From a virus, in the IMG/VR virus record IMGVR_UViG_3300042311_000920, positions 9,440-73,439 of that record: 64,000 nucleotides of DNA; one strand, 5' to 3'. Position numbers and translations under genes: made by a program. The notes under the pieces were generated by a model. The model saw nothing but the letters and a program-made list of their open reading frames with translations. It was not told where the DNA came from and made no database searches. Shown here one piece after another: positions 6,044-35,100 of this stretch (the stretch's first letter is position 1; every line of letters starts with the position of its first letter).

Positions 6044-6084
6044 TTATGTTGGGTGCGGTGGGAAATTTATTTTTTATTGCACCT

Positions 6085-9255: not shown

Positions 9256-9558
9256 ATGATTAAAAATTCAGAACAACCAATCAGTCCAATGCCTTACCAA
9301 AATCAAGATGGCTCTATTCAACACGATGTTTATTTTGGATTAACTAAAAGAGAACATATTGCTATTGAAGCAATGAAGGGCTTTTTAGCAAACCCATCTG
9401 AAACAGAAGTAAGTTCAACTTATGTATTGGAAGCAATCGGGTTGCCAAAAGAAACTAAGTATTCATTTGATGAGCATTACACAAAGTATGTTTCACAAAT
9501 AGCAGTCAAATATGCCGATGCCTTATTAAAGGAATTGTCAATCGGAGACGGTCGGTAG
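9256..9558 (+). CDS. phage hypothetical protein with GLTKRE motif (cassette)
   Basis: GLTKREHIAIEAMKG...AVKYADALLKEL pattern common in phage small proteins. Confidence 0.7.
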   Translation: MIKNSEQPISPMPYQNQDGSIQHDVYFGLTKREHIAIEAMKGFLANPSETEVSSTYVLEAIGLPKETKYSFDEHYTKYVSQIAVKYADALLKELSIGDGR

Positions 9559-9628
9559 CCATTTCTGCTAACGGCTACGGCTATGTGCAGTAGCGGATTT
9601 AAAACACTAAACTTTAAATATAGAACGA

Positions 9629-10420
9629 ATGATGATAGTAGAACAAATTTTGAATAACGCACCGAACCCGCTATTGCATATAGCCGATGTTAGTGGCGGT
9701 GCTTTGTTCAATGCTGATTGTATGGATATTTTACCTCTTATTCCTAATAAATCGGTTCAACTTATTTTGGCTGATTTGCCTTACGGAACAACAAGTTGTG
9801 CGTGGGATTGTATTATTCCATTTGACAAACTTTGGGCTGAATATGGTAGAATAATAAAAGACAATGGTGCAATAGTTTTAACGGCTTCACAACCATTTAC
9901 AAGTGCCTTAGTAAACAGTAAAATTGAATGGTTTAAATATGCTTTAGTTTGGGAAAAAGAAAGACCAAGCAACCCTGCACACGCAAAGATTAGATTTATG
10001 AAATGGCACGAAGATATTTTGATTTTTTCACCTAATAAAGAAAAGTTTAATCCACAAAAAGAAAAACGATTAGAGCAAAATAAAAGGAATAACAAACAAG
10101 GTGTATTTCATAAATCTGATGCTTATGGAGAACAAACAATACCACAAGGCGATGGGATGGCTGATGAAAAGTATTTGAGTAGCATATTAAAGGTAAATGT
10201 TGAAAGAGGGTTGCACCCAACGCAAAAGCCGTTAAAACTATTTAAAACATTGATTAGTGCCTTTACGGATGAAAATGATTATGTACTTGATAATACAATG
10301 GGAGTAGGCACAACTTGTTTAGGAGCAAAAGAGTTGAACCGTTCCTTTATTGGAATTGAAAAAGAGGTAAAATATTATGATTTGGCAGTTGGTCGGGTGT
10401 TCGGTCAGCATTGCCACTAA
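9629..10420 (+). CDS. N6-adenine/N4-cytosine DNA methyltransferase, beta class (cassette)
   Basis: DLPY catalytic motif, HPTQKP, VLDNTMGVGTT SAM motif. Confidence 0.92.
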   Translation: MMIVEQILNNAPNPLLHIADVSGGALFNADCMDILPLIPNKSVQLILADLPYGTTSCAWDCIIPFDKLWAEYGRIIKDNGAIVLTASQPFTSALVNSKIEWFKYALVWEKERPSNPAHAKIRFMKWHEDILIFSPNKEKFNPQKEKRLEQNKRNNKQGVFHKSDAYGEQTIPQGDGMADEKYLSSILKVNVERGLHPTQKPLKLFKTLISAFTDENDYVLDNTMGVGTTCLGAKELNRSFIGIEKEVKYYDLAVGRVFGQHCH

Positions 10421-10574
10421 CGGTTTCGGGCTTGGCGAAGGTGGGCTTGTAGGATGCTCAATTTTAGCAGAATGTTTCTGCCCACTTTTGCCAAACCCGT
10501 GTTATGTGTAGTTGCGGTTGTTTATCAGGAACTTAAATTGAAAACGAATAAAAAAGAATTAGAAAAAAGAAGCG

Positions 10575-11276
10575 ATGGAATTAAATAAAATATATAACGA
10601 AGATTGCATTGAAGGTATGAAGAAAATACCATCTGCGAGTATTGATATGGTTCTAACTGACCCACCATATACATCTCCAACTGTTCACGCATTCGGAAGG
10701 CAAAAAGTAAACCGATTATCAGATTTAGCAATACAAGAATTTTACTTTGCTGAAATCAAAAAGGAATGGGAACGAATACTGAAACCCAATGCACCTGTTT
10801 TGATTTTCTGCGATGATATTTATAGTGCTGTTTTGATGGGTTTGTTTTACGAATGGCAACAAAAGAATTTAGTTATTTGGGATAAGGGTAGAATTGGAAT
10901 GGGAAACCCGTTTAGAAAACAGCACGAACTTGTATTTTATGCAAACAGAGGAAGTATTGAATTGAATAAAACCAATATGAGCCACATTCCTACTGTAATA
11001 AAAGAAACGCTAACAAAAGAACATCACGGAGCAGAAAAGCCAGTAAAACTATTGATGAAACTGATTGACGGACTTACAAAAGAAAATGCAACAGTTTTGG
11101 ATTGCTTTATGGGAAGTGGCTCAACTGCGATTGCTTGTTTAGAAACGAAAAGAAACTATATCGGTTTTGAACTTGATAAAAGCTATTATGAAACTTCACA
11201 AAATCGTATTTCTTCCTTGTGCGGTGGGCTTTTTTCTAATTCTTTTTCAACGGAAAGTTCAATTGAAACGGGATGA
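10575..11276 (+). CDS. N6/N4 DNA methyltransferase, beta class (cassette)
   Basis: TDPPY, HGAEKP, VLDCFMGSGST. Confidence 0.92.
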   Translation: MELNKIYNEDCIEGMKKIPSASIDMVLTDPPYTSPTVHAFGRQKVNRLSDLAIQEFYFAEIKKEWERILKPNAPVLIFCDDIYSAVLMGLFYEWQQKNLVIWDKGRIGMGNPFRKQHELVFYANRGSIELNKTNMSHIPTVIKETLTKEHHGAEKPVKLLMKLIDGLTKENATVLDCFMGSGSTAIACLETKRNYIGFELDKSYYETSQNRISSLCGGLFSNSFSTESSIETG

Positions 11277-11290
11277 TAGCAATTACACAT

Positions 11291-11337
11291 AACGTTTTGC
11301 AGATTGGCGGTCGTTTTAATGCCGCCAATGTGCTGTT
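11291..11337. repeat. minimal attC-like hairpin (47 bp)
   Basis: AAC-GTTTT-GCAGATTGGCGG...CCGCCAATGTGC-T-GTT. Confidence 0.8.
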
Positions 11338-11400
11338 ACAGGTAGTAGGGATTTCTACCACAAAACTTAATTAGAAGTACAAACAAAAAAGAATTTAAAA

Positions 11401-12276
11401 ATGAGCGAGGGCAAAAAAAGAAAAATTAAAGTATTATCATTATTCGATGGTATGAGTTGCGGACAAATAGCTTTAAACAAGCAAGGGATTGAATATGATG
11501 AATATTTTGCTTCTGAAATTGACAAAGAAGCTATAAAGGTAACTATGAAAAACTACCCAAACACAAAACAATTAGGTAGTATTACGGAACTAAAAGGAAT
11601 TGATTTGCCAAAAATAGATTTGCTATTTGGCGGAAGCCCTTGTCAAAGTTTTAGTAGAGCAGGAGATAACAGTGGATTTGACGGAAGTAGTAAATTGTTT
11701 TGGGAATTTGTAAGAGTTTTGAATGAAGTAGAACCTACTTACTTTTTACTTGAAAATGTAATTATGAAAAAAGAATGGGAAGATGTAATTACGGAAGCGT
11801 TAGGAGTGAAACCTATTGAGATTACAAGTGCTAAATTTGTACCACAAGCAAGACGAAGATTATATTGGACTAATATACCCAATGTAACGCAACCGAAACA
11901 ATCTGAATACACTGTTTTAGACTTTATTGATGGTGATGGGTTTCCGACAAGTTGCGGAATTGATAGAGTTTTTAAACGCAAAGAAATATTTAATACTTTG
12001 ACGGCAACTTATTGGAAAGGAATTAGAGGAAGTTCAAGACCAGCAGTAAGTATTAGAGAAGGATTTTTAGATGCGGACAGAGAAGCACACCGTATGCTAA
12101 CACCAACAGAATGTGAACGACTACAAACAGTACCTATTGGATATACGGATTGTGTTGCTAAAACAAATAGATATAAGATGCTTGGTAATGGTTGGACAGT
12201 TGATGTGATTGCTCATATTTTTTCTTTTTTAAAGGAGGGGAAATTTTTAAATTCTTTTTCTGACGAAAATGTTTAA
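11401..12276 (+). CDS. C5-cytosine DNA methyltransferase (cassette)
   Basis: LSLFDG, GGSPCQ, LLENV, QARRRLYW, RMLTPTECERLQ, LGNGW. Confidence 0.93.
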   Translation: MSEGKKRKIKVLSLFDGMSCGQIALNKQGIEYDEYFASEIDKEAIKVTMKNYPNTKQLGSITELKGIDLPKIDLLFGGSPCQSFSRAGDNSGFDGSSKLFWEFVRVLNEVEPTYFLLENVIMKKEWEDVITEALGVKPIEITSAKFVPQARRRLYWTNIPNVTQPKQSEYTVLDFIDGDGFPTSCGIDRVFKRKEIFNTLTATYWKGIRGSSRPAVSIREGFLDADREAHRMLTPTECERLQTVPIGYTDCVAKTNRYKMLGNGWTVDVIAHIFSFLKEGKFLNSFSDENV

Positions 12277-12377
12277 TCAAAGCACTTCACCGCTATTACC
12301 TGTAACGGTTCTCGGCTTGGCGAAGTTGCCGAACACAAAACTTCATTAGAATTACAAATGTTTAAATCAAAGATAGA

Positions 12378-13022
12378 ATGTCAAACGAAGCACAAAACGG
12401 CAATTTTGCCAAACCGATGTTAGCACCAGTACGGGTTTTAAATCTATACGCTGGAATTGGAGGAAACCGAAAACATTGGGAAAATGTAGAAGTAACTGCA
12501 ATAGAATACAACGAAGAAATTGCAAATGTTTACAAGAAATTACATCCAAACGATAATGTGATAGTTACTGATGCACACGATTATTTGGCTAAAAATTGGA
12601 GAGAGTTTGATTTTATATGGAGTTCGCCACCATGTCAAAGTCATAGCAAAGTAAGAATGATGGCAAGTAAAAGCGGAAGTTATGATGCTGTAATGCCTGA
12701 TATGAAATTGTGGAGTGAAATAATTTTTTTACAGAACTTTACTAAAAACACAGATATAAAGTTTGTAGTTGAAAATGTAAAGCCTTATTACGAACCATTT
12801 GTAAAACCAACTGCAAAACTTGGTAGGCATTTATTTTGGGCAAACTTTGAAATACCTGAAGCCGAAATAAAAGATGGATTAACCCACAATGAAAGAGGAA
12901 GTTCTGAAAAAGGTTATTTTGACTTACGAGAATATAAAATAAAACACAGAAAAGACCAAATAATTCGTAATTGCGTTGACCCAAATGTAGGACAATATGT
13001 TCTCGGTTGTGCAGTTTCGTAG
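12378..13022 (+). CDS. short C5-methyltransferase-like protein (cassette)
   Basis: LYAGIGG, SPPCQ, ENV; no obvious TRD or motifs IX-X. Confidence 0.85.
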   Translation: MSNEAQNGNFAKPMLAPVRVLNLYAGIGGNRKHWENVEVTAIEYNEEIANVYKKLHPNDNVIVTDAHDYLAKNWREFDFIWSSPPCQSHSKVRMMASKSGSYDAVMPDMKLWSEIIFLQNFTKNTDIKFVVENVKPYYEPFVKPTAKLGRHLFWANFEIPEAEIKDGLTHNERGSSEKGYFDLREYKIKHRKDQIIRNCVDPNVGQYVLGCAVS

Positions 13023-13066
13023 TATTGGTGCTAACTAATCGCTAATCGCTATAAAACCAAATCAAA

Positions 13067-14032: not shown

Positions 14033-15331
14033 ATGGCAACAATTAAATTTACCGTGCGAGGGAAGAAAAACCCGTCGCCCATCTACATCCGTTTTGCAGA
14101 GGGAAAAAATATAGACCTTCACGAAAAATCTGGACTTTATGTAAATCCAATTTTTTGGGACCAGAAAAAGCAACAGATCCGGAAAGTTCTCGAAGTAGCA
14201 AACAAAGACGATATCAATTCCAATCTTCGGAAACTTGAAATTTATTTGATTGATGAATTTAATCAATCATTTATGACCGGCCAAGTAATAAATAAGCAAT
14301 GGCTGTTGCAATCTATCCAAAAATTCTTTAATCGCCCTAAAAACGAAGAAAAACTACAAAATTTAAAGCATCACATTTATTTTTCAGATTACGCCCAACA
14401 CTGGATTGATAACAAGGCTAAAAAATTCAAAGTTGCCGCCAATAAATATATGGACGAAACAACGATAGGACATTATCAGCAAGTTTTGGATAACTTCAAA
14501 GATTTCGAAGGAAAAAACAAAGTAAAACTATGCGATTTAAGCAACTTAAAATTAGACGAGTTCTCTTTATACCTTTCAGATACTAAAAGCTATTCAGAAT
14601 CTACTAGCAAGCGTAAAGTTGGACGCGTTAAGTTCTTTTGCGCACGTGCCGAAAGCGACAATTTAGAAGTCAACAAACAATACAAAGAAAGAGTTTTCGT
14701 CAAAGAGCAAGAAATCGAATACAAGCAGCCTTATTTAAACGAAGATGAAATTAACAACATTTTTAAATTGAAACTAGAACCTAATTGTCCAATGGATCAT
14801 GTTCGAGATAATTTAATAATTGGATTATGGACTGGCTTAAGGGTGTCAGACTTTCTAACGAGATTAAACGTCTCCAATATTCAAGATGGTTTTATCAAAA
14901 TAAAAACAATGAAAACAAAAACATTTGTCAATATTCCGATACACTCACAAGTAGCTTTTATTTTGAATAAAAGAAACGGACAACTACCTAATAAAATATC
15001 AGAGCAAAAGTTTAACGACCACATAAAAACCTTGACGCAGATAGTAGGTATTGATGATTTAATGATTGGAGGAGTGATGAAAGTTGACGAAAAAACTAAA
15101 GTTAAAAGGAAAGTAATTGATACATATAAAAAGTGGGAGTTAATGACCTCTCACGTTGGGCGCAGATCATTTGCTACAAATTTGTTCGGAAAAGTATCTA
15201 ATAAAACCATTTGTGACGTATGCGGCTGGTCAAATGAAGATATGCTTTTTGCTTACAACAAAACCACGAACATGGAATCAGCGAATGTACTTAAGGATTA
15301 CTGGGATAAAAAATACGAATCAAAAATATAA
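14033..15331 (+). CDS. int: tyrosine recombinase / phage integrase (Bacteroidota type with arm-binding and SAM-like domains)
   Basis: TGLRVSD (R), KTMKT (K), SHVGRRSFATN (HxxR), CGWSNE, FAY (Y); 432 aa. Confidence 0.92.
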   Translation: MATIKFTVRGKKNPSPIYIRFAEGKNIDLHEKSGLYVNPIFWDQKKQQIRKVLEVANKDDINSNLRKLEIYLIDEFNQSFMTGQVINKQWLLQSIQKFFNRPKNEEKLQNLKHHIYFSDYAQHWIDNKAKKFKVAANKYMDETTIGHYQQVLDNFKDFEGKNKVKLCDLSNLKLDEFSLYLSDTKSYSESTSKRKVGRVKFFCARAESDNLEVNKQYKERVFVKEQEIEYKQPYLNEDEINNIFKLKLEPNCPMDHVRDNLIIGLWTGLRVSDFLTRLNVSNIQDGFIKIKTMKTKTFVNIPIHSQVAFILNKRNGQLPNKISEQKFNDHIKTLTQIVGIDDLMIGGVMKVDEKTKVKRKVIDTYKKWELMTSHVGRRSFATNLFGKVSNKTICDVCGWSNEDMLFAYNKTTNMESANVLKDYWDKKYESKI

Positions 15332-15588: not shown

Positions 15589-15613
15589 AATACCCATAAA
15601 TTAAACTATAACT

Positions 15614-15814
15614 ATGGAAAAAGATATTGAAGACAAAGATATTCTCCGCAACGTGATAAATGCTCTCAACCTGAAACGAAAAGAGTTCCACGTAAAAATC
15701 GGGTACTGACAAACAATCATTTATAAAATTTTGAACGGAGACGCTCGCATATCAAATCAAAGAAAAAGTATAAAAAGTGAAATTATTTTTCACACAAGTG
15801 TTGTTTATGTGTAA
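15614..15814 (+). pseudogene. possible degenerate HTH regulator
   Basis: MEKDIEDKDILRNVINALNLKRKEFHVKIGY*QTIIYKILNG: HTH-like with in-frame TGA at 15707. Confidence 0.3.
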
Positions 15815-15830
15815 AATGTACTTATATTTG
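15801..15830 (+). promoter_or_regulatory. Bacteroidota primary-sigma promoter
   Basis: TTG-N19-TATATTTG matches the -33/-7 consensus (TAnnTTTG). Confidence 0.75.
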
Positions 15831-16004
15831 TCCTTGAATCAGTCTGGGTGGAATCAGATTTGATTATCTGACAATACACCAGTACTGATGCAAAAAAAGA
15901 TAATCCTTAATCAAGCTCCTCCACCCGGCAAGATTAAGGTTTTTTTTGTGCCTTATTTTAAACAAAAAGCTATATACTGAAGGGATTAAAAGAGTGAAGC
16001 GGTA

Positions 16005-16167
16005 TATTTCTAATGCGTTACTTCGGGGGTGGTTAAATAAAGCGCAGCTGTGACATAAAGGAAAGAGCAGTAGATTTAACAGGCAAGGTAATTTGTCTTA
16101 AAATAGATTCCACGTTTAACCGCATTACTGACGAGTTAAATAGTTCGACGAGCCGACGAAAACTCAC
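16005..16167 (+). ncRNA. hammerhead-ribozyme-like motif (type III topology)
   Basis: TTC|TAATGCG (16008-16017) pairs with CGCATTA just before CTGACGA (16128-16134); stem II GTT...GAC; GAAA at 16158; stem III weak. Confidence 0.45.
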
Positions 16168-16375
16168 TGCAGTTTTTTAAAGTAATCTGAGAATTAGATG
16201 CACCTGAAACGAAAGTTTTAGGGTGCTATATCACATCTAATTCTCAAATCCTCCTCATCCTCTTGCAGTTATAATTTATATAGTAATTGTATATATTATA
16301 ACAACAAATTTTAAAATTTTTTCACAAAAAAAACAAAAATGACCGAACTTAGGAATATTGAATTTATTTGGATTC

Positions 16376-16522
16376 CTATAGCTTACAATACGGTCGCAGA
16401 CGAATTGTTAAGATAACATTCACTTTGTCCAAAAAACCATTAGAAAATCCTACCATTTGGCAAAACTTACTCTTACTAATTCCTTTGTATTCAACTACTT
16501 GTAAAATTCTATCAATAATCAT
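16376..16522 (-). pseudogene. truncated CI-like repressor (HTH only, 48 aa)
   Basis: MIIDRILQVVEYKGISKSKFCQMVGFSNGFLDK resembles Bacteroidota phage repressor N-termini; divergent from promoter at 16554-16584. Confidence 0.55.
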
Positions 16523-16553
16523 AAAAATAATTGAGATTTAAATCTAAAATAAT

Positions 16554-16584
16554 TTGTTTATTTAGCCTATACTCTATATATTTG
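16554..16584 (+). promoter_or_regulatory. Bacteroidota promoter for the early operon
   Basis: TTG-N20-TATATTTG. Confidence 0.65.
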
Positions 16585-16591
16585 CCTTGTC

Positions 16592-16629
16592 TTGTTACAA
16601 AATAACAATTTAATGTTACACAATAACAA
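16592..16629. promoter_or_regulatory. tandem operator-like palindromes
   Basis: TGTTA-CAAAA-TAACA and TGTTA-CACAA-TAACA just downstream of the promoter. Confidence 0.55.
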
Positions 16630-16927
16630 TGCATTATGTTCTGGTATTTACTGAAAGTTAACGGGGCAGTCAGCCTTTGAGTGCGAAGCCTCCTAAACTT
16701 GTATTTAGGAGGAAGTCTTTACAGCTCATACGCCACCCAAGAAACGTTAATTAGCCACTGTGGGCCGAACGAATACACTGCGTTAAAAAATAAAAACAAA
16801 CTCTAAAACCCTAGTTTTAAAATGTTTGGCGACAGGAAAAACTAGGTCTTAACTTAACAAAGATATAAAATAAATTGTAACACTTGTAACATTTGTATTA
16901 AAACTTTGTTAATAAAAAGTAAATCAA

Positions 16928-20260: not shown

Positions 20261-20504
20261 AATGTATTCCGCACCCGTAGAGCAAGAAATAATCGACCGC
20301 TTAGCAAGTATAGGATTCGATCAATTAGAAGACAGCATCGAGGACGAACTAGAAGATTTCTGCATCATCATCAATGCCGAAGAAAAGCTCTTTTGGATTT
20401 CAGACCAAACCAATCTTGAAATGACCGATGAAATTTGCCAAGAAAGATACGACCAATCAATTTTACAAACCAATTTTAAAACCATATCATCATGGCTGAA
20501 TTAA
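20250..20504 (+). CDS. acidic hypothetical protein
   Basis: 84 aa, overlapping both neighbours. Confidence 0.6.
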   Translation: MENKMYSAPVEQEIIDRLASIGFDQLEDSIEDELEDFCIIINAEEKLFWISDQTNLEMTDEICQERYDQSILQTNFKTISSWLN

Positions 20505-21403
20505 GCACAATATCACAAGACCAAGAATTAGTTTCTCAGGAATTAAACAACCAAGTTTTAGCAGTGCTAAGCAACAAGGTAGAAGGGTTCCAAAAAGCAT
20601 TTATAATGGCAAGCGCTATTCAAGTCCTAAAAGACAGACTGTCTCCTGAATTCATGAAGCCAATTATGGCTTTACAAGGTTCAAATCTTGGATTTAAAAC
20701 TGACAAAGACAAATCTAGCGGTTATCCGGAAGTAGAAGTAAAAGCGTGTTTAATTGACGCAGTGCTTTTAGGGCTACAACCCACGGGAAACGAATTTAAC
20801 ATTATAGCGGGTAATATGTACCCTACTAGACAAGGTTTTGGGTCATTATTGAAAAAGATAAATGGATTGAAATACTCAATTTCGTATTCAAATCCAATCT
20901 TCACTCAAGACAAGTCTTCTGCAACGTGCGTAACCACAATCAAATGGGAATTAAACGGAGAGAAAAACCAACAAGAAGTTGAGTTCGCGATTAAATCAAA
21001 TGCCTACGCTACCGCTGATGCTATTTTAGGAAAAGCAGAAAGGAAAGCCAGAAGATGGCTTTTTAATACGGTTGAAGGAACTGATATTCCTGACGGTGAC
21101 GTTACTGATATCCCACACACGGAAGTAAAATCAACCATTAACCCCGAAAGAATCGCCAAGGAAAAAGAACGTGAGCGTGTTATAAAACACATCACTAATT
21201 CCAAAAACGTTTCCGAACTAGAACGTTGTGTTTCGAAAATAGACAAAGACGACACTGAATTAGTAGAACAATACGTTACCAAGCACGTAGAACTTTCAAC
21301 GTCCCTAGATGAACTTCAGAAATGCTTGTCATTAATTCCAGAAGACGATCACAACCTTACTATTCTGTACGCTGATAAGAAACGAGAACTTGCAAAATCG
21401 TAA
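20492..21403 (+). CDS. putative ssDNA-annealing/recombination protein (RecT-like)
   Basis: AVLLGLQP motif, size and context; family assignment is inference. Confidence 0.45.
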   Translation: MAELSTISQDQELVSQELNNQVLAVLSNKVEGFQKAFIMASAIQVLKDRLSPEFMKPIMALQGSNLGFKTDKDKSSGYPEVEVKACLIDAVLLGLQPTGNEFNIIAGNMYPTRQGFGSLLKKINGLKYSISYSNPIFTQDKSSATCVTTIKWELNGEKNQQEVEFAIKSNAYATADAILGKAERKARRWLFNTVEGTDIPDGDVTDIPHTEVKSTINPERIAKEKERERVIKHITNSKNVSELERCVSKIDKDDTELVEQYVTKHVELSTSLDELQKCLSLIPEDDHNLTILYADKKRELAKS

Positions 21404-21406
21404 TCA

Positions 21407-21850
21407 ATGAATTTCGCTTTAAAAACCTGCAAAGTTTCAGGAGCTCTATGGAAGCAATACAATAGTCTTCAAAAATGTCCTTGCGTAATTTGCGTAAAAA
21501 GACGTGAAAAGCGACCAAATCTAAAACTGAAATCGCTATACAAACCTATCAATCGGGTAAGTAAAAAAAGGCAAGTTCAGGAACTGCAATACGCAGCCGA
21601 CCGCATCATATTCCTAGCAAAACCCGAAAATAAAATTTGTCCAATAACAGGACAACCAACAACAGAAATACACCACGTCCGTAAAAGACGTGGTTTTGCT
21701 GATGAATGGGCAAGGCTAAATAACATTCCATTACTTTTAGACCAACGTTATTGGCTTGCTGTTTCCAGAATTGGTCATCAAAAAATCGAAGAAAATCCAA
21801 CGTGGGCGTACGAAAAAGGTTACTCCCAAAAAAACAACACAACATTATGA
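21407..21850 (+). CDS. NinG/HNH-like nuclease
   Basis: CPITG...TEIHH...AVSRIGHQKIE. Confidence 0.5.
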   Translation: MNFALKTCKVSGALWKQYNSLQKCPCVICVKRREKRPNLKLKSLYKPINRVSKKRQVQELQYAADRIIFLAKPENKICPITGQPTTEIHHVRKRRGFADEWARLNNIPLLLDQRYWLAVSRIGHQKIEENPTWAYEKGYSQKNNTTL

Positions 21851-22007
21851 AAAACAATCTATCATTTTTAGAGTTCAGTCGCTACTTATACGGCTACAAC
21901 GTTTACAGTAAAAAAACAGAACAAGTAATCCCAAGGTATCAATTGTATTGGGCAGGCTACACGATCGAGAGAATCAAACAGAATTTTAACCTTAAGCCAA
22001 GAGTAAA

Positions 22008-22187
22008 ATGACAACTTACGGACAAATAGTTGACGGTAAAAGAATAACACTAAATGACTTTGAAAAACAAGTTCGAGAAGGCGTTTCTGGCATCGTAACT
22101 AACCTAACATCAGCGGAAATAGCCAAACGTTACCGTAAAGGCGAATCCGTGGATAATGCAGTGAGTTATTTTATAATGCACAAGTAA
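22008..22187 (+). CDS. small hypothetical protein (59 aa)
   Basis: MTTYGQIVDG...MHK*; its TAA forms the left boundary of array 2. Confidence 0.55.
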   Translation: MTTYGQIVDGKRITLNDFEKQVREGVSGIVTNLTSAEIAKRYRKGESVDNAVSYFIMHK

Positions 22188-22265
22188 CGTCCTGTGGCTT
22201 TGTCTAGTGGCGTTGAATTAAGACTAGACACAACAAAAATACACTAATTATTAAATTTAAAAATT

Positions 22266-22586
22266 ATGATTTCAGATAACACCCAATCCAAGCCATTAAA
22301 CAAAACGACTGTTAGCGGTTCGGTTACTGACAATATGACCTTTAAAGACGCTTTAAAGTCATTAGGAATAGAAGATTATGCTGAACGGATTTTTAATAGT
22401 AATTCACACGGAGAATTATTTCATATTCAACAGTATTTTACTTTAGCAAAGGTTCTAAAAGGAAATTCAGAGTGGTTTAGAGAATGGTTTGAAAAAGTTG
22501 TGAAATGGGCAGAAGAAAATTGGGAACGACCAGAATCAATTTTCCAACACATTAGTCAAATTTTAGTAGATAGTCGTTCTAACTGA
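22266..22586 (+). CDS. cassette hypothetical protein
   Basis: ATG in hairpin loop; an internal ATG is also possible. Confidence 0.65.
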   Translation: MISDNTQSKPLNKTTVSGSVTDNMTFKDALKSLGIEDYAERIFNSNSHGELFHIQQYFTLAKVLKGNSEWFREWFEKVVKWAEENWERPESIFQHISQILVDSRSN

Positions 22587-22874
22587 CGGCTAACTGATTT
22601 ACCTGATTACAACGGGAAAAGAGCTTTTGGATTAGGTTCGGTAGACGAAATTTGGATTATAGATGATTTTGAATATTGTACGGAATATCCTGATTTACCG
22701 ATGCGATAACATTACCACTAACGTTTTGCAACTTGCATTAGTGCCTTGCAAACAAGCGAGTAGTTTCGGATTAAGACTAAACACAACAAAGAAAAACAAA
22801 ATATAAATTAATAACCAAGCCAAAGGCATTGATGCAAATTGCTGTTATCACTTCGGCTTTTTATTCCAAAAAAT

Positions 22875-23117
22875 ATGACAACAGATGAAATGCTTATCGA
22901 AATTGTAAATTACAATTACAAATCCGCTGGTTTTCCTTATGTATTTTTAGACTACTCACAATCTTTTAAATATTGGGCAATTACTTGGCGAAATCCAGTT
23001 GATTTTTCAAATGAAAAACAAACTAATGCACCAACTCCAAATGAGGCGTGTAAAAAAGCACTCGAATTTATAAAAAGCAATCCGAGTATTTTTAGCCGTT
23101 CCAACCAAGCTGAGTGA
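22875..23117 (+). CDS. cassette hypothetical protein
   Basis: ATG 22875 within cassette 22844-23121. Confidence 0.65.
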   Translation: MTTDEMLIEIVNYNYKSAGFPYVFLDYSQSFKYWAITWRNPVDFSNEKQTNAPTPNEACKKALEFIKSNPSIFSRSNQAE

Positions 23118-23278
23118 TAACGTTTCCACGCTTGGCGAAGGTGGCGATTTTAACCACAAATACTGATGCGTAGAACGAAATTTGAATATAGCAATAATTG
23201 TCAAGCGGAGTACTGCACCGCCACTTTTGCCAAACGTGTGTTATGCGTTCGGCTTTTTTGGAACTTAAAAATTTGATT

Positions 23279-23668
23279 ATGAAAGAAAGTATTATTAGAT
23301 GTCCAATTTGCAGTAAGATTACAGCGTTGGAAAAAAATGGACGAACTCAAAAAATAGAGCAAGTTCACGGAATTTGTTGGGATAAAATTGGCTATTCGAT
23401 TGGTGGGTGGGGAAGCCGAAGAGATTTTATTCACGGATTTTCTGGCGAAGTTTGTAATGATTGTTTCACAGCTTTAAAAACAAAAATCAATGAATTTAAA
23501 GAAGTTGTTAACCAAAGAACAAACTCCTGCGAAGAAGGGGTATGTATTTACAAAACATCAAAAGACAAATCAACAGGGGATAACCTGTCTGACCTGCAAC
23601 AAGACGAGTTACAATCCAAACGACATAAAACACCTTTATTGCGGTTGCTGTCATCGTTTTCACGATAG
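23279..23668 (+). CDS. cassette Zn-finger-like protein
   Basis: CPIC...CNDC; ATG 23279. Confidence 0.55.
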   Translation: MKESIIRCPICSKITALEKNGRTQKIEQVHGICWDKIGYSIGGWGSRRDFIHGFSGEVCNDCFTALKTKINEFKEVVNQRTNSCEEGVCIYKTSKDKSTGDNLSDLQQDELQSKRHKTPLLRLLSSFSR

Positions 23669-23681
23669 CGTTGTAAGCTGA
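23490..23681 (+). CDS. overlapping small Zn-finger protein
   Basis: CLTC-NKTSYNPND-IKHLYCGCCH; stop falls in the cassette end. Confidence 0.5.
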   Translation: MNLKKLLTKEQTPAKKGYVFTKHQKTNQQGITCLTCNKTSYNPNDIKHLYCGCCHRFHDSVVS

Positions 23682-23748
23682 CGCATAACGTTTCGCGGCT
23701 ACACGAGGTTTGGGACTAAATTAGCAATAATTTTTAAATTTAATACAA

Positions 23749-24582
23749 ATGATAGAGATACAAAACCAACTTGAAATTAAGCCTGAAACGGCAATAGCAC
23801 AAAACCGATGTTACCAGCAGTGTTTTTTGTCGGACAATTTGGATTTAATGAAAACAATAGAAAGCAATACCATTGATTTGATTTACTGCGATATTCTTTA
23901 CGGAACTGGCAGAAACTTTAGCGACTACCAAGACTTAAAACCGATTAGAAGTGAAATTGAAGCACATTATTTACCACGATTAAAAGAAATGTATCGAATA
24001 CTAAAACCAACAGGGAGTATTTATTTACAAATGGATACAAGAATAAACCATTGGATGCGAATTTTAATGGATGATATTTTTGGCTATGATAGAATGTTGA
24101 ATGAAATTGTAGTTTGTATTAGTAAAGGAAATCAAACAAACAAACACTTTGCAAAAAGGCACGATATTTTACTTTATTACACAAAAACAAAAGAATGGAT
24201 TTATAATTTAGATGCTGTTTCAAAAGAAAATCCTGAACATAAAAGGTATAAATACCAAGATGAAAAAGGAATGTATAGATGGCATATTGAAAGCATCAAA
24301 GATTATAAAATGTATCTTAAAAAACAAAATATAAACGATGTTTGGAGTGATGTAGGAATTGTTCAAGGCAACTCAATAGAAAATACAGGTTATTCTACAC
24401 AAAAACCAAAATCATTGATTGAACGAATTATAAAAGCAAGTAGTAACGAAGGAGATTTAGTTGCTGATTTCTATGCTGGAAGTTTTACAACAGCAGTGGT
24501 TTGTAAAGAACTAAATAGGAATTTTATCGGATGCGATATTAATCCTTTGGCTTTGGAGATTTCAAAACAACGATTGGCTTAA
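23749..24582 (+). CDS. N6/N4 DNA methyltransferase, beta class (cassette)
   Basis: DLIYCDILY (variant DPPY), YSTQKP, VADFYAGSFTT. Confidence 0.88.
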   Translation: MIEIQNQLEIKPETAIAQNRCYQQCFLSDNLDLMKTIESNTIDLIYCDILYGTGRNFSDYQDLKPIRSEIEAHYLPRLKEMYRILKPTGSIYLQMDTRINHWMRILMDDIFGYDRMLNEIVVCISKGNQTNKHFAKRHDILLYYTKTKEWIYNLDAVSKENPEHKRYKYQDEKGMYRWHIESIKDYKMYLKKQNINDVWSDVGIVQGNSIENTGYSTQKPKSLIERIIKASSNEGDLVADFYAGSFTTAVVCKELNRNFIGCDINPLALEISKQRLA

Positions 24583-24731
24583 CATTGCTGGTAACGTTTG
24601 TGGCTTTGCTTAGTGGCTGAAAAGCAAGCCTAAATTATTGAATTAAAAACAAATTTTACAAACACAAAACAGTGTTGAAATTTTGCCCGAAACAGCCATT
24701 GAGCAAAACCACTGTTATAAACAGGCTTTTT

Positions 24732-25346
24732 ATGAAAATACTTAATTTATATTGTGGTATTGGTGGAAATAGAAAACTTTGGGGAAACGAACACGAAATA
24801 ACTGCTGTTGAATTTGAACCAAAAATAGCTGAAAAATACAAAACTTTATTTCCAAATGATACGGTAATAGTTGCAGATGCACATCAGTATTTACTTGACC
24901 ATTATTCAGAGTTTGACTTTATATGGACTTCTCCACCTTGCCAAACACATAGCCGAGCAAATTATTTTATAAATTATATTACTAATTCTCGTTACCCAAA
25001 AATGGAATTATGGCAAGAAATAATATTCTTAAAATCATTTTTTAAAGGCAAATTTTGTGTTGAAAATGTAGTTAGTTATTATGAATTTTTTATACCACCG
25101 ACTGCTGAAATAGGAAGGCATTATTTATGGTCTAATTTTAAAATACCAAAAATACCATTGCCAAAAGATGAAGTAGGAACTATGATGAAAGAATATGTAG
25201 GCAAAAAAAATCACGCACATAGTAAGAAATTAGAAGATAGAAACGCTGTTAATTCAGATTTAGGACTTCATATTTTAAATTGCGCAACAGAAAGTTATAA
25301 TCAAAATAATGTTGAACAGATAGGTTTGTTCAAAGCTTGTTTATAA
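24732..25346 (+). CDS. short C5-methyltransferase-like protein (cassette)
   Basis: LYCGIGG, SPPCQ, ENV; paralogue of 12378-13022. Confidence 0.85.
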   Translation: MKILNLYCGIGGNRKLWGNEHEITAVEFEPKIAEKYKTLFPNDTVIVADAHQYLLDHYSEFDFIWTSPPCQTHSRANYFINYITNSRYPKMELWQEIIFLKSFFKGKFCVENVVSYYEFFIPPTAEIGRHYLWSNFKIPKIPLPKDEVGTMMKEYVGKKNHAHSKKLEDRNAVNSDLGLHILNCATESYNQNNVEQIGLFKACL

Positions 25347-25378
25347 CTAATTTATAACCGCTATAAATGTATTACAAA

Positions 25379-25564
25379 ATGACAAAAATACTAACAAAAA
25401 CAAAGGTTATAAGAGTTTCATAAACGCAACACAAAACTTTGCAAAAAATGAAATCTTATAACGTAGATGTAGGTAAATTCATCAGAGATGCAATAGCTGA
25501 AAAAATTAAAAAAGAGTATTCGGAATTAGTGCCAAAACCTAAAAAATCAGATTGTCCATTTTAA
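25379..25564 (+). pseudogene. array-terminal small ORF with internal stop (RHH-like)
   Basis: MTKILTKTKVIRVS*TQHKTLQKMKSYNVDVGKFIRDAIAEKI...DCPF*; TAA at 25421. Confidence 0.5.
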
Positions 25565-25576
25565 TAAAAACCACCC

Positions 25577-25810
25577 ATGGGAAGACTAGACCACGCTCGT
25601 CAAATAAAATTAGAGCCAGAAAGAATAAACTTCGCACTTCAACAAGTAAGAAGTCTCGGCTATGTAATAACGCACCAAGACCGTACTAAAATAGAATTTG
25701 AATTCAACGGAGATACGGTACAATACTATCCATATTCAGGATGGCATTCAGGAAAAACAATCACCGACGGTCGTGGTTGGAACAAACTCAAAAAACAAAT
25801 TGAACCATGA
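25577..25810 (+). CDS. hypothetical protein
   Basis: 77-aa ORF, YPYSGW...GRG. Confidence 0.65.
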   Translation: MGRLDHARQIKLEPERINFALQQVRSLGYVITHQDRTKIEFEFNGDTVQYYPYSGWHSGKTITDGRGWNKLKKQIEP

Positions 25811-26586
25811 ACGAAATTCAAAAATTTCAGCAAGAGGAAGTCAGGCAAGACTTACCCGCACAGCAAGAAATCTGGAAAGATATCCCCGGCTACAGAAAAT
25901 ATTACCAGGCTAGTAATTTAGGAAGGATAAGAAGTTTACCTCGTATGATTAAAAATACTAGCAAAAGCAGTCACTTATCTAAGCTAAGAGTATTAAAAGC
26001 GCACCCATCAACAAAAGGATATCTCACTGTTGTTTTATGTAAAAATAGTAAAACTAAAAGTTTCGGGGTTCATAGGTTGGTCGCTTGTGCTTTTTTAGGA
26101 CACAAGTTAAATCTAGGTTTCTCGGTTGTTGTCGATCATATAAATAACATAAATACAGATAACAGACTAGAAAATCTTCAACTAGTATCAGTTAGAACCA
26201 ACACAACGAAAGATAAACCTGTTAATTCTAGCGGATATCTTGGTGTTGTAAAACGGGAAACCCGATACTACGCAGTTATTGTCATTGATGGAAAATCTAA
26301 AAAACTAGGCTCGTATAAAACTCCATTAGAAGCACATAAAATGTACTTAAAAGCCGTAAATGCTTTAAAAAACAAAGAAGAAGTAGTTTTTCAAAAAAAA
26401 GTTTATACCTCTAAATACAAAGGAATTAGTTACGCTAAGCACGTAAATAAATGGGTCGCCTATCATTACTACAAAAAATCCCAAACGTTGGTAGGTTATT
26501 TCGAACACGAAGAACAAGCGTATCAGGAATTATTAAAATATAAAAACAAAATATCGAAAAAGTATAACCCTAAAATTATTGAGTAA
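25807..26586 (+). CDS. NUMOD4-HNH homing endonuclease with AP2-like domains
   Basis: EIWKDIPGY..YQASNLGRIRS, VHRLVA, DHINNINTDNRLENL. Confidence 0.9.
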   Translation: MNEIQKFQQEEVRQDLPAQQEIWKDIPGYRKYYQASNLGRIRSLPRMIKNTSKSSHLSKLRVLKAHPSTKGYLTVVLCKNSKTKSFGVHRLVACAFLGHKLNLGFSVVVDHINNINTDNRLENLQLVSVRTNTTKDKPVNSSGYLGVVKRETRYYAVIVIDGKSKKLGSYKTPLEAHKMYLKAVNALKNKEEVVFQKKVYTSKYKGISYAKHVNKWVAYHYYKKSQTLVGYFEHEEQAYQELLKYKNKISKKYNPKIIE

Positions 26587-27122
26587 TGGAAGAAGAAATT
26601 TGGAAAGATATTCCTAATTACGAAGGTATATATCAAGTAAGTAATATGGGAAATGTTAAAAGCTTAAAAAGAGTGTTATTAAATCACGGTAAGCATCCAT
26701 TTTTTAGCAAAGAAATGATATTAAAATCAGCCATCGATAGCACAGGTTATAAATCGGTAAGGCTATGTAAAGATTCAAAGCCAAAGTCTCTTAAAGTTCA
26801 TCAACTTGTGGCAGTGACATTCTTAAATCACATTCCCGATGGATATAAAATAGTTGTTGATCATATTAATACAAATAAGTTAGATAATCGTGTTGAAAAT
26901 CTCCAATTAATAACTCATAGAGAAAACTGCTCAAAAGACCGAACAGGTTCTAGTAAATATACTGGCGTATGTTTAGATAGAAACTGTGGTAAATGGCGTT
27001 CTTCTATAAGAATAAACGGAAAAATAAAAAATCTCGGACGATTTTCTAAAGAACAAGACGCGTCTTTAGCTTACCAAAATGCTTTAAAAAGTTTACTTCA
27101 AAATAATTTAAAACATCAATAA
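26586..27122 (+). CDS. NUMOD4-HNH homing endonuclease with AP2-like domain
   Basis: EIWKDIPNYEGIYQVSNMGNVKS, DHINTNKLDNRVENL, SKYTGV. Confidence 0.9.
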   Translation: MEEEIWKDIPNYEGIYQVSNMGNVKSLKRVLLNHGKHPFFSKEMILKSAIDSTGYKSVRLCKDSKPKSLKVHQLVAVTFLNHIPDGYKIVVDHINTNKLDNRVENLQLITHRENCSKDRTGSSKYTGVCLDRNCGKWRSSIRINGKIKNLGRFSKEQDASLAYQNALKSLLQNNLKHQ

Positions 27123-27124
27123 CC

Positions 27125-28057
27125 ATGGACAGTTTATTCACAGATTGGCGCCCACGCGCGTCGTCGTTTGGCTTATTACTTACAAACCTTCCCGAACCGT
27201 TCACAAATGAAGACGAAAAACGTCTCAAAGAAATTCAGTACGAAAAAGAAACGGGAATAATGCCAAGCGGAAGTAAAAACCGTGGATGGTCCGAAACAAA
27301 ACAAACTGAACTTGACAAGTACCTTAAAAAGAAAGACGGCAAAGATTCACTTCCCGATGGAGCCATCACAAAACTTGAAGAAATCTTCGATGATATTTTC
27401 TGGAAACGTAAAAAACTTCTCAATAACAAGTACCTCGAAAAAGGTTTAATAGTTGAGGAAGATTCCCTTGAATTACTTTCAGAAATTGACGACGTTACCT
27501 ATTGGAAAAACGACGAGCAAATTGAAAATGAGTTCGCGCAAGGTTGCCCTGATAATATCGACGGTCGCGTTCGTGATGCTAAATCAAATTACGATTACTT
27601 CACGTTCAAAAATGCGGAACTTTCAAATCTATACGCTTGGCAAATCAAGTGTTATATATGGATTTTACTTTCGCTAGGTCGAAAAATCGACCGCACCGGA
27701 GAACTTTGTTATTGCCTTGTAAACAGCCCGGCACATCGTATTGAAGCCGAGAAGAAATCAATCTACTTTTCAATGGGTCAACCTGATTACGAAGAGGAAC
27801 GTTTTATCAAAGCTGCATCACAACTTGAACGCAACCACATTTTTGACATTCAGAAATTCAAAGAAGATTATCCGAACGTTGATTTAATCAATACACATTG
27901 GCGCGACGTTCCGAAGCATATGCGTTTAAAAAGATTCGAGGTAACGTTGGAAGACAAAGACATCGAACACATGACACGTCGTTCAAAAATGGCTAAGAAG
28001 TGGTTATTAGAAAGAGAGCAAAAAGAGTTAGAAGTAATCAACAGTAAAGAATGGTAA
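27125..28057 (+). CDS. putative lambda-exonuclease/YqaJ-like nuclease
   Basis: RASS, KGLIVEE, GCPD...DAK, YAWQ..CY: PD-(D/E)xK pattern. Confidence 0.65.
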   Translation: MDSLFTDWRPRASSFGLLLTNLPEPFTNEDEKRLKEIQYEKETGIMPSGSKNRGWSETKQTELDKYLKKKDGKDSLPDGAITKLEEIFDDIFWKRKKLLNNKYLEKGLIVEEDSLELLSEIDDVTYWKNDEQIENEFAQGCPDNIDGRVRDAKSNYDYFTFKNAELSNLYAWQIKCYIWILLSLGRKIDRTGELCYCLVNSPAHRIEAEKKSIYFSMGQPDYEEERFIKAASQLERNHIFDIQKFKEDYPNVDLINTHWRDVPKHMRLKRFEVTLEDKDIEHMTRRSKMAKKWLLEREQKELEVINSKEW

Positions 28058-28266
28058 CCATGGAACAATTAGAATTTTTAGAGCAAGAATTAAACATGAT
28101 GCTTGAAAACATCAAACGCATCAAAGAGTACCAAAAGTCAGAAGAAAATATACAGTGGCGTCCGTGTTCTTCTAGAGTTATGGGAGAACTAAAACACCGT
28201 GCCGTTTCTTTAAAACAAAGATTAACATTAGTATCAAGCATAACCACTAACGATTTATTTAGATAA
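28051..28266 (+). CDS. hypothetical protein
   Basis: 71-aa coupled ORF. Confidence 0.55.
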   Translation: MVTMEQLEFLEQELNMMLENIKRIKEYQKSEENIQWRPCSSRVMGELKHRAVSLKQRLTLVSSITTNDLFR

Positions 28267-29879: not shown

Positions 29880-30195
29880 AAAAGACCAATTTGTAACTAT
29901 GGAACATTTCGAAATATACAACAGTCAATTAAACTACCTAGAAATAACAGAAGAAGATATGGCATTATTTAAACACCGTGAACCGGAAACAGAAATTCAA
30001 GAAAAAGAAAAAGCTTCTATAAGTGAATTCATAAAAGCAGTAAAAGAGGAATTGAAATTCCTTGGCTACACAATAGACGAGCTTGCATCATCTACCTACA
30101 TCAACAACGAAAGATTGCGATCATTGCTTCAAGGAAAAATGAAATTCACTCCCGAGGAAATCAAAGAAATCAAGAAAAAATTATACATGGATTAA
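29833..30195 (+). CDS. protein with C-terminal HTH
   Basis: GYTIDELASSTYINNERLRSLLQGK. Confidence 0.6.
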   Translation: MKHGKIYHQLEIIRPKKDQFVTMEHFEIYNSQLNYLEITEEDMALFKHREPETEIQEKEKASISEFIKAVKEELKFLGYTIDELASSTYINNERLRSLLQGKMKFTPEEIKEIKKKLYMD

Positions 30196-32117: not shown

Positions 32118-35100
32118 TTATTTTATTATATTTTTCAATTTCTTTTTTAAATAACTCTTTATTTTTATAAAAATTAACTAATATCTTTTTAATATTCTTA
32201 TCTCCTTTATAGTTTATGGCTATTTTTTGTTTAAATTGTTTTATACTTTGAGTTGATAACGGAGTTAATTCAGGTATTTTATTTTTCAACAAATCGTTAA
32301 TTGCTTTATTTGATAATTTAGAAGACTTTAAACTAACTTCAATATCATCATCAGTCATACCCATCTTTTTTCCTGCGTTAACAATATTAAGCATCTTTTT
32401 ATAGTTTACTTCGTGATATTTAGCATAATCTTTAACAATGCTTTCTACTTCATCTTTCTCAAGTAATTTTGATGTTTTTACTAATTTTGAAGCGCTACTT
32501 TTGTCTGCGGATTCTGAATCTTTAACTTGATATGCAAAACTTGACATTGCTGCACTGTAATTAATTACCGATAACCTCATTCCGAATAAACCCAATAAAG
32601 CTTCTTGGTTTGTATATTCTTTACCATAAGAACTAAATTTATCGCCTACATATTGAGAGCCTATTTCATTGGCTCTCATAAATTCAGTTGCATTATTATA
32701 AACACCAGGGCCAGCTTGTTTCATTAAAAAATTAATAATCTTATTCGGTTCGTTAATTATTGCGTCAAATAAATTATTACTTTGATATATTTTTTGATTA
32801 TACTCATTTTCATTTTCACTTACACTTATTAGTGTTTTAAATGAAATATCCTGTGAAATATAAGGAGAAAGTATTTCGTTTAATGATTGTTTTAATTTGT
32901 TATCAAAATCTCTTCCTGCTCTTTGTTCAAACAATGTAGATATTGGTTTCATTAGTGTTTCGCTTGCGAAAAAAGCCGTTCCGTCTATAAACATAGGTTT
33001 TCCGTTTTTAGTTCCTATGTATATTAATTTTGAATTTATTTGCCATTCTGGAAGCATATCTCTAATAGCATCATCATCTTCATCACTAATTCCTAACATA
33101 GACATTGTTAACATACTCAAACCGCTTAAAGTAGCATTTGCAACAATCATTCCTGTAGCTCTTTGAAATGCCATTTTATTTCGACCCGCTTCAATATCTT
33201 CTTTAACAAACAAAAGATTGTTTTTAGTGGTTCTAATCGCTTCATAAGGAAAAGAAACAAACGTTCCTACTAATGGAACTCTTCTTAATCTTTGCATGTT
33301 TTTTGGTAAATAGGAATAAGTTGGATAACCGTTATTTATTCTGTAGGCTGCTTTTTTTTCTGCCTCTGCTTTACTCATTCCTGACTTTATAAAATTATCG
33401 GTTTCAATGTAAAAACCCGCTACTTTATAAAAATCATCGCCAAAAGCATATAGTTTTTTAGCAAAATCAAAAACTTTTTCAGTAGTGTTTTTACTTATCA
33501 TTCTATCTACTTCTTTACTGAAATCATTTAATACAGCCATTAACTCCCCAGAATTTGCTCCATCACCCAAAACCCCTAGTTTAATTAATTTCTGACGTTC
33601 ATCAAATAATTGTGTTTGAGATATTTTCGTGGTTAAGGCTTGGTTAAAAGCTTCTGCAATACGTTCTGGTTTCATTAAGAATAAATGTCCTGAATTTGCT
33701 CCTAAAAAAACACCGCTTATTAAATTTCTCGCTGTGGTTGTTGGAGACAAAACAGTTTTATTTAATTTTACATAACCTGCAATTTTTATCCACGCTTTGT
33801 AAAAACCACTTTCGATAGTTTTCAAAGGTTGCATATCCTCAAACGCCTCTTTAAACTCAACAGGAACATAAATGTCGTTTAATATCTTCCATCCATCTCC
33901 ATCTGCTAATTTAACATATCCTAATTTCGCTTCGGTGCTTGCAATATTGTTGGCTATTAAATTTTCTCTTAATTTTGACTGATACTCTATATTGCCTAAA
34001 TATTGACTTATTTTATATACGGTATTTACGTAGTTATAAACAGGGTCTTTACTTTCTCCGAGCAACTCTCTAAATTCTAAAGGGATATTTTTCCTCTTTT
34101 TAAAGAAGTTAGAAACTGCATTTCCGTTTGAACTAAGTTGAAAATCGCTTTTACCTTTTCTTATATCTGCAAGATATTCAGCAACGGCTTCGGTAGCTTC
34201 GTTTCTACTCATCCCTTCTTCTCGTATCAAAAAGTTTATAGCATTTCTGATACGTAGCTGCCCTTCTTTGCTGATATTTTTAAAATCCCCAGTAATAATA
34301 TCACGATAATTATCATCAGAAAATATCTGATAATTTCTGGTGATGTAAGTATCCATGTTTGCTTTAATAGTGTCAATAAGGTTTTGAGTTGAATCAATAC
34401 TATTTTGGTTTTTCATTTTAGATAAATTATCTTCCAAAATATCAACCAACGCAGTAGACAAACCATTTATTCGTTCTCTAAAATAATCTAATTGGTTTAT
34501 TTGTTCTTGGGATAAAAAAGAAACATCAGCTCCTTTTTCACCGGCCAAATAATCATTTATTGACAACAAATTATTGTTAATATTATTTTTGTCTAAATTT
34601 TTTACTGCTTTTATTATTTTATGAAAAGCATTAACTTCACTGTTTATATGGTCTGAAAACGCAGCTATTGTTCTGTTTCTGCTTCTAACAACTTCGGCTG
34701 TTGTATTATTTAATCCGCTGTTACTTTTAAAAGTATTAGCCCAAACTCTTTTAAAATATCTTTGAAAAGGAAAACGAAACTTAACAGGCCCATTATCTGA
34801 CAACAGTAAGTCTCTTTGATTTTGATTGCTACTTCCTAAAAAACCTTGCGATATCGCTTCGGAATCGTCTTCTAAATCCGAATTATCAAATTCATTGTTG
34901 TCTTCTATACTTGGTCCTACTTCTTCGTTTGGTTTTTCAACATCTTCTTGATTGGGTTGTTGCTCGATGACTTCTCCTTCAATAACTCCATTTTCTGGTC
35001 CATCTTCTTTTGCATCGACAACGGCATCGCTTCGTAAATTGTTTGGAACTTGCTTTTTTCGGTCGCTGATTGTTTCATTTGATTTATCTCTTTTAGTCGT

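Follow-up and report, generated by a model that had tools for sequence, protein, structure and literature searches.

A probable integrase-less array of integron-like hairpin units, of a type found in Flavobacterium chromosomes, in a virus genome

The hairpins and gene units of array 2

Here, we analysed a 64,000-nucleotide (nt) stretch of viral DNA, referred to below as the window, which corresponds to bases 9440-73439 of the 73,439-bp IMG/VR record IMGVR_UViG_3300042311_000920 (rated complete; GC 35%). The subject is array 2, a block at 22185-25367 in which hairpins alternate with open reading frames (ORFs), all on the plus strand. An earlier description made from the letters and their ORFs, called here the sequence-only reading, had counted five hairpins of 124-128 bp and five ORF units in this block, and this was borne out: from AAC to GTT, hairpins H1 to H5 measure 128, 127, 124, 126 and 124 nt. 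All five have TAAC at the left edge and GTTA at the right edge. The AAC(G)/(T)GTT box is followed, toward the loop, by 3-5 unpaired nt of the 5' arm, a helix of 4 bp and a recurrent C x A mismatch, then a stem of 13-15 bp with a conserved G.T pair, and finally the AT-rich loop itself. With their AAC...GTT boxes, covarying stems and one favoured folding strand, the five hairpins of array 2 are predicted attC-type sites.

The hairpins were scored with a covariance model, R1, which was built from 22 elements (16 of the window and 6 of Flavobacterium phage snusmum6-1). As H1, H2, H3 and H5 are all among its training sequences, these four match R1 by construction; H4 is not a training member. H1 (22185-22314) scores 93.1 bits, its stem score is 38 on both strands, and the stop codon of the preceding ORF, 22008-22187, sits within its TAAC box. 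It is followed by unit 1 (22335-22709), whose ORF at 22335-22586 encodes 83 amino acids, or 106 if the ATG at 22266 in the loop is used, and has a weak match to phrog_8803. About 130 nt (22587-22718) lie between this ORF and H2, with a short open frame ending at 22709, and this stretch may be what is left of a second gene or of a broken one. H2 (22719-22847; 97.2 bits) is 92% identical to a hairpin of snusmum6-1, and the match is limited to the sequence from TAAC through GTTAT. The ORF of unit 2 (22875-23117; 80 amino acids, no family) has an 84% DNA match in a Flavobacterium genome (G064:C59), which extends from the GTTA of H2 to the TAAC of H3. At H3 (23118-23243; 99.9 bits), contigs from four lake metagenomes show a peak of depth, with loose ends at 23118 and 23251/23256, which indicates that the same hairpin occurs in other contexts. 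Unit 3 has an ORF at 23279-23668 (129 amino acids, no family).

The second half of the array carries methylases. H4 (23686-23813; 68.0 bits) is a chimera, since its loop and right arm match hairpin S9 of the snusmum phages and its left arm is of a different type; this is why its upper stem is unpaired and its stem score is 19, against 28-52 in the other elements. Unit 4 (23749-24582) encodes an N6/N4 DNA methyltransferase (PF01555, 4.2e-46), the start codon and first ~22 codons of which fall in the loop and right arm of H4. In snusmum6-1 the same leader peptide is joined to a different methylase, and a Polaribacter-phage homologue of the unit-4 methylase has its own start instead of the hairpin-derived leader. 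H5 (24592-24717; 119.9 bits; stem score 45 on the plus strand versus 39 on the minus) precedes unit 5 (24732-25346), a short C5-methylase-like ORF that matches the N-terminal part of PF00145 (2.9e-7). Unit 5 is a paralogue of the unit at 12378-13022 of a larger array in the window, array 1, with 67% DNA identity. Array 2 is closed at 25344-25367 by a TAAC box without a hairpin, with the form TAACTAAT-N7-CGCTATAAA. This 24-nt motif ends both arrays (13032-13055 and 25344-25367; 2 matches versus 0.03 expected) and may be an acceptor site on the phage side. An exact scan for it returned 9 other viral contigs, which is about chance level; in 3 of the 9 the motif stands just after R1 hairpins.

Array 1 occupies 2983-13055 on the plus strand and comprises 19 hairpins with as many units, of which four encode DNA methyltransferases; the terminal motif closes it. 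It is thus much larger than the sequence-only reading had implied. The description of array 2 as a second array of the same architecture holds, as the two share hairpin families as well as the methylase paralogue.

In about half of the phage units the ORF starts inside the hairpin loop. One such unit of array 1 lies at 7135-7476, where the ORF begins in the loop of hairpin E10 and the right arm encodes a lipoprotein-like signal peptide (..AMLAVVFTSC). Loop-like sequence, corresponding to model positions ~25-120, also occurs after the hairpins at 5527-5602, 9237-9299, 10511-10576 and 11348-11406, three of which are short-loop hairpins. It is as if the leader lay inside the loop in long sites and behind the hairpin in short ones.

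We next consider the hairpins as one family. At E<1e-5, R1 detected 22 sites in the window; switching its filters off added E5 and E13, both with short loops. All 24 are on the plus strand, 19 within 2983-12428 and 5 within 22179-24723. No R1 site lies in the remaining ~50 kb of the window or in the 9.6 kb with which the virus begins. Of the matches, eight (H4, E5 and E13 among them) are outside the training set. A crude stem scan likewise grouped the design in two blocks, and shuffled windows gave 2-4 matches each. RNAalifold on the 22 elements returned 22 pairs, 15 of them with compensatory changes, and the AAC and TGTTA are invariant. The plus strand pairs better in 21 of the 24 window elements, with two ties and with H4 reversed, and the pair tally is 60 G.T versus 17 A.C. 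A simple pattern, TAACGTT-N-TGTTA, was dropped (3 matches versus 0.99 expected; 9 of 100 shuffles reached 3). A search of the whole window against Rfam gave no match at the gathering score, and blastn of hairpin E12 against GenBank phages gave no match. Megablast matches to Staphylococcus phages and one Pelagibacter phage were set aside, since they reflect short stretches of HNH and methylase genes and have nothing to do with the hairpins.

Related arrays and a recombinase in Flavobacterium

A RecT-like protein encoded upstream of array 2 pointed to an uncultured Flavobacterium metagenome-assembled genome, in which R1 had 74 matches. We then surveyed 101 Flavobacterium genomes with R1 and found matches at E<=1e-5 in 79 of them, many with at least 32 candidates. 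The hairpin family is therefore not phage-specific. In two genomes, G092 and G029, the sites form large arrays (~37 sites over 42 kb and ~24 over 20 kb, respectively), each in a single orientation, with one ORF per unit and the longest ORF nearly filling each interval. That ORF is on the strand opposite to the folding strand of the hairpin in 47 of 52 intervals. Several host units occur in duplicate; in the G092 array, units of 195, 184 and 121 amino acids are present three times each. A gene for an IS91-family transposase is located at the far end of the same array (L066:537-1652). As the same hairpins fill large chromosomal arrays of Flavobacterium, phage and host seem to draw on one pool of exchangeable genes.

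Pairing is well preserved in the host copies. In 54 distinct host elements, pairing extends to 96.6% of cells, compensatory changes occur at 16 of 22 pairs, and all 54 share two invariant G.U pairs. The covariation score reaches 0.715, in comparison to 0.187 for shuffled and at most 0.116 for slid alignments; the host alignment was fitted to R1, which favours the structure.

At one end of the G092 and G029 arrays lies a gene for a Xer-like tyrosine recombinase of 346-347 amino acids. Against NF040815 ('XerA/integron integrase', cut-off 220) it scores 230.8 bits in G092 and 216.4 in G029, and against TIGR02249 ('integron integrase', cut-off 265) 210.6 and 202.8 bits, in two stretches. Region 182-245 of the classical integron integrase, IntI, holds an IntI-specific helix that reads extrahelical bases. 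The array recombinase, which aligns end to end with the XerA structure, is without ~42 residues of this region: it has 22 residues where Vibrio cholerae IntI (PDB 2A3V) has 64. Homologues at E<=1e-60 are present in 56 of the 101 genomes, mostly in single copy, and by our own count 52 of these 56 also have hairpins (genome G098 being taken as one of two unlisted negatives).

The recombinase gene is transcribed toward its host array. Among 30 recombinase loci examined, the 3' side of the gene is complete over 1.5 kb in 18, and in 11 a contig edge cuts it off within 1.2 kb. Twelve of the 18 complete flanks contain an R1 hairpin, always with the opposite strand label. In 11 of 19 loci, a conserved junction is found ~108-111 nt from the 3' end of the recombinase gene; it reads YAAC|TWGTWTATA, with a small inverted repeat after it. 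A regular expression allowed to match at any offset raises this to 13 of 19, and four further loci have TAACTCGTTTATA or TAACTACTTTATA on inspection by eye. In L074, the host junction site reads TAAC-N11-CGCTATAAA, with a spacing equal to that of the phage terminal motif. A more distant recombinase homologue (38% identity; G013:C1:885170-1081447) has the same strand label as the hairpins of its genome, which would be the divergent, classical integron layout.

The virus itself encodes no homologue of the host array recombinase, no IntI and no protein matching TIGR02249. The recombinase gene nearest to array 2 is 6.9 kb away and belongs to another family. It is a tyrosine integrase at 14033-15331 with Phage_integrase, SAM_5 and Arm-DNA-bind_5 domains. 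We considered this integrase as the enzyme of array 1 and rejected it, as its similarity to the host array recombinase is confined to the catalytic box (E 0.54). Since the virus has neither a recombinase of the host type nor IntI, array 2 is integrase-less, resembling a cluster of attC sites lacking an integron integrase (CALIN). The five sites span no more than 2.6 kb, no integron integrase is close to them, and by R1 they are of the Flavobacterium type. Array 1 is probably integrase-less too, because its neighbouring recombinase is an ordinary phage integrase of another family. The sequence-only reading had proposed that the system does not need an adjacent recombinase gene. The part about adjacency stands, with no array-type recombinase homologue or IntI in the virus, but independence from such an enzyme does not follow, as the likely enzyme is host-encoded.

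A proposed mechanism and its alternatives

Our preferred interpretation, to which we assign a probability of about 0.72, is that array 2 is an integrase-less cassette array of a Flavobacterium-native, integron-like system, carried by the phage in reversed gene polarity. The sites would be single-stranded DNA hairpins recognised by shape and native to Flavobacterium. A phage unit would have the form C-hairpin-ORF-...TAA, with crossover in the 5'-arm TAAC box, and this position of the crossover would be the reason why phage ORFs lie on the folding strand. The plus strand would be the recombined one, and the hairpin loop could provide a ribosome-binding region and a start codon. The host recombinase would act on phage arrays in trans, most plausibly at the prophage stage. 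The activity of the arrays, the acting enzyme and the exact crossover are inferred.

The unit boundaries were read from two related phages, snusmum6-1 and snusmum9-1, whose array flanks are 99.7-99.85% identical. The former has an extra block consisting of hairpin S9 and a methylase, which runs from just after ...GCATAAC to ...GTATAAC and is cut within ATAAC; snusmum9-1 reads through at this place. The latter has an extra block of a hairpin and ~100 nt, cut within TATAAC|GT. It follows that the phage unit is a hairpin with the ORF downstream of it, and that crossover occurs inside the 5'-arm TAAC box. Of the 24 phage units of the window, 23 have the longest ORF downstream of the hairpin and on the folding strand. 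Read on the opposite strand, the phage unit shows the classical G|TT crossover with every ORF reversed; this is consistent with the better-folding strand and with the host arrays, whose ORFs are oriented in the classical way. The phage unit is thus the mirror image of the host cassette. In the closest relative of the virus, L113, two hairpins stand on the opposite strand directly upstream of the RecT-like gene (L113:7864-8517), so the orientation of arrays can differ within one phage.

Integrons, the textbook device by which bacteria capture genes, are usually regarded as dependent on a specialised integrase. The arrays described here are similar to classical and sedentary chromosomal integrons in their imperfect hairpins with AAC/GTT boxes, variable covarying stems and variable loops, in their long co-oriented arrays of one-ORF units with duplicated cassettes and one favoured folding strand, and in boundaries within the AAC/GTT triplet, with a tyrosine recombinase and a fixed junction at one end of the host arrays. 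They differ in that the host recombinase is below the TIGR02249 cut-off, is without the IntI-specific insertion and is transcribed toward the array, and in that the sites are longer (~125-140 nt) with long AT-rich loops. Another difference concerns the phage alone: its ORF is on the folding strand, and the site precedes the ORF and may supply its start codon, whereas host arrays share the classical feature of an ORF complementary to the folding strand. Classical attC sites choose their strand through extrahelical bases and an unpaired central spacer; the unpaired 5'-arm bases beside the box and the C x A mismatch seen here are conserved and might correspond to these.

Several observations weigh against our interpretation. 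Classical IntI reads attC by means of an insertion that the host recombinase does not have, and the action of the host enzyme on these sites is predicted from sequence. Moreover, 27 of the 101 genomes have hairpins but no recombinase homologue at E<=1e-60. The folding energies of H1 to H5 as single DNA sequences are no better than those of shuffles (z of -0.19, -0.29, -1.53, +0.19 and -0.87), and for this reason the structural support comes from covariation and not from stability. The crossover was placed only within a microhomology of 5-6 nt (5-8 nt by the indel boundaries), and not to the bond, from two events in one phage pair. The ORFs on either side of H2 are unrelated to those of snusmum6-1 despite the similarity of the hairpin itself, and the 84% relative of the unit-2 ORF stands behind a dissimilar hairpin. 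Hairpins H4 and E6 are left-right chimeras. Finally, in contigs of the four lake metagenomes that cover 20400-28100, array 2 is unchanged and shows no unit-skipping joints; as contigs drop rare variants and excision products, this absence says nothing on activity. The sole contig joint, at 23156-23205, lies within the loop of H3 and comes from a single contig of low depth, whose shorter side has 27 letters.

The loose linkage of hairpins and ORFs, together with the chimeras, indicates that exchange also takes place at or near the GTTA side or inside the hairpins, probably by homologous recombination. This could be extended to the whole system: the hairpins would be conserved intergenic linkers, the RecT-like protein and the exonuclease of the phage would shuffle modules by homologous recombination, and folding would be secondary. 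Array 2 does sit in the recombination module. The hairpins are also the only stretches at least 90% identical with otherwise unrelated phages (E9 is 90.6% identical to a hairpin of snusmum9-1), the chimeric H4 and E6 imply crossovers within hairpins, and in one lake metagenome the unit-4 methylase stands behind an intact hairpin. However, linkers of this kind explain neither the compensatory changes that keep the arms complementary, nor the strand asymmetry and the exact TAAC boundaries, nor the host arrays beside a dedicated recombinase and a junction site, and we consider this explanation unlikely as a full account. A precedent for such linkers exists in T4-type phages, whose promoter-early stem-loops carry promoters and have been proposed to mediate module exchange by homologous recombination. 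Like the hairpins studied here, they are intergenic, bound small accessory genes and mark points of module exchange; we know of no recombinase-linked host arrays and no covarying 25-bp stems for them.

The hairpins could also be RNA elements of the phage transcript, acting in processing, stability or translation control between cistrons and conserved for this function. The coding strand of the phage is the better-folding one, with conserved G.U pairs, and the loops hold AT-rich leader-like sequence and start codons, similar sequence following the short-loop hairpins. In the host arrays, however, the same strand folds though 47 of 52 ORFs are on the other one, the hairpins match no Rfam family, and units are gained and lost at the box. 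This makes a purely RNA-based function still less probable than the linkers, although the hairpins may have an additional RNA role in phages, alongside that of a recombination site. Least convincing is spread of the hairpins between Flavobacterium and phages as non-autonomous transposons resembling miniature transposable elements with inverted repeats (MITEs), mobilised by a transposase in trans: although the hairpins have inverted repeats at their ends and are numerous in both host and phage, their arms covary in the manner of intrastrand pairing and not of transposase-bound inverted repeats, the flanks read by eye have no target-site duplication or direct repeats, no transposase was found among the window ORFs scanned, and the units are regularly spaced with one ORF each, in a single orientation, in arrays starting beside a tyrosine recombinase. 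Nadal-Molero et al. 2024 (PMC11602168) describe many 'MITEs' common to Flavobacterium and viral sequences, which might or might not be our hairpins. The two sets are alike as short inverted-repeat elements shared by Flavobacterium and its phages and usable for host assignment, and differ in that ours show hairpin covariation, array organisation and recombinase linkage instead of transposon features.

Integrase-less attC clusters have been reported in phages before. Qi et al. 2023 (Front Microbiol, PMC9892861) list 17 CALINs in 10,705 phage genomes, each with at least 2 predicted sites; the CALIN of Polaribacter phage P12002L contains two methylases, and IntI1 recombined one attC site of this phage with attI1, on the bottom strand only. 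In P12002L, R1 finds one weak site outside the methylase region with default filters, and five weak sites around the methylase genes with filters off, among them those at 30002-30062 and 32217-32287. The arrays of our virus resemble those CALINs in being integrase-less attC clusters with methyltransferase cargo. They differ in having 24 sites in two arrays and in belonging to a Flavobacterium site family with a different recombinase, as opposed to the reported link to classical IntI1. Thus, phage CALINs are already published (Qi et al. 2023); for the Flavobacterium array system with this recombinase, a full-text literature search found no description.

A broader version of our interpretation, which we regard as an even bet, is that a second, undescribed form of the integron is common to Flavobacterium and its phages and is mirror-imaged in the latter. 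It would combine a short Xer-like recombinase that lacks the IntI insertion with attC-like sites of ~130 nt and an acceptor, YAAC|TWGTWTATA. Small genes, anti-restriction methylases among them, would then be expression-ready plug-ins, moved in trans by the host enzyme into several phage loci marked by a hairpin-less TAAC acceptor. As the folding strand is the coding strand, the site would travel ahead of its gene and provide it with a ribosome-binding region, even with a start codon. If a whole genus uses the same site logic with another recombinase, the integron would have to be defined more broadly. The hairpin sites organise accessory early genes of Flavobacterium-infecting phages, and they would offer a concrete mechanism for the mosaicism of small phage genes and for rapid exchange of anti-restriction methylases. 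Model R1 would also serve as a sequence marker that ties uncultured lake phages to Flavobacterium hosts.

The accessory segment and its surroundings

Array 2 is located between two conserved genes on the plus strand. The left flank is the RecT-like gene (20492-21403), which has no match in Pfam, PHROG or NCBIfam; UniRef names a 68%-identical Flavobacterium protein 'RecT family protein'. The right flank is an exonuclease gene (27125-28057; phrog_5715, 2e-21). The placement given by the sequence-only reading, between these genes and 9 kb from array 1, holds (array 1 ends at 13055, 9.1 kb upstream), with the amendment that two HNH homing endonuclease genes intervene directly downstream of array 2, before the exonuclease gene. 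These are tandem NUMOD4-HNH_3-AP2 genes at 25807-26586 and 26586-27122; in L113, HNH copies occur at four places.

The same reading could be checked in relatives that lack the array. We compared 26 viral relatives (33-54% amino acid identity) and the two closest metagenome relatives, L113 and L114 (83%). Directly after the RecT-like gene, 6 of the 26 have a homologue of the exonuclease and 2 of the 26 a homologue of ORF 25577, and in L113 and L114 the exonuclease begins ~35 nt after the RecT-like gene. The expected empty site was thus found, and the block is not invariant in relatives. Since the two flanking genes abut in the closest relatives, the segment of 5.7 kb from 21403 to 27125 is accessory, and array 2 is a part of it, between the TAAC at 22185 and the TAAC at 25344. 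Hairpins within 8 kb occur in only 4 of the 26 viral relatives. L113 has its hairpins at other places, including one before a methylase 69% identical to that of unit 4.

Methylases account for 6 of the 24 units of both arrays (three PF01555 and three PF00145-like, at 9629-13022 and 23749-25346), which suggests an anti-restriction arsenal; in the mechanism proposed above, all six would serve this function. The virus looks like a temperate phage, as the window encodes a helix-turn-helix protein and an antirepressor besides the integrase. The structural genes are on the minus strand, from ~32 kb of the window. After the integrase gene, a stretch of 1.3 kb (15600-16900) without a long ORF contains several very stable local folds and could be a regulatory or attachment region.

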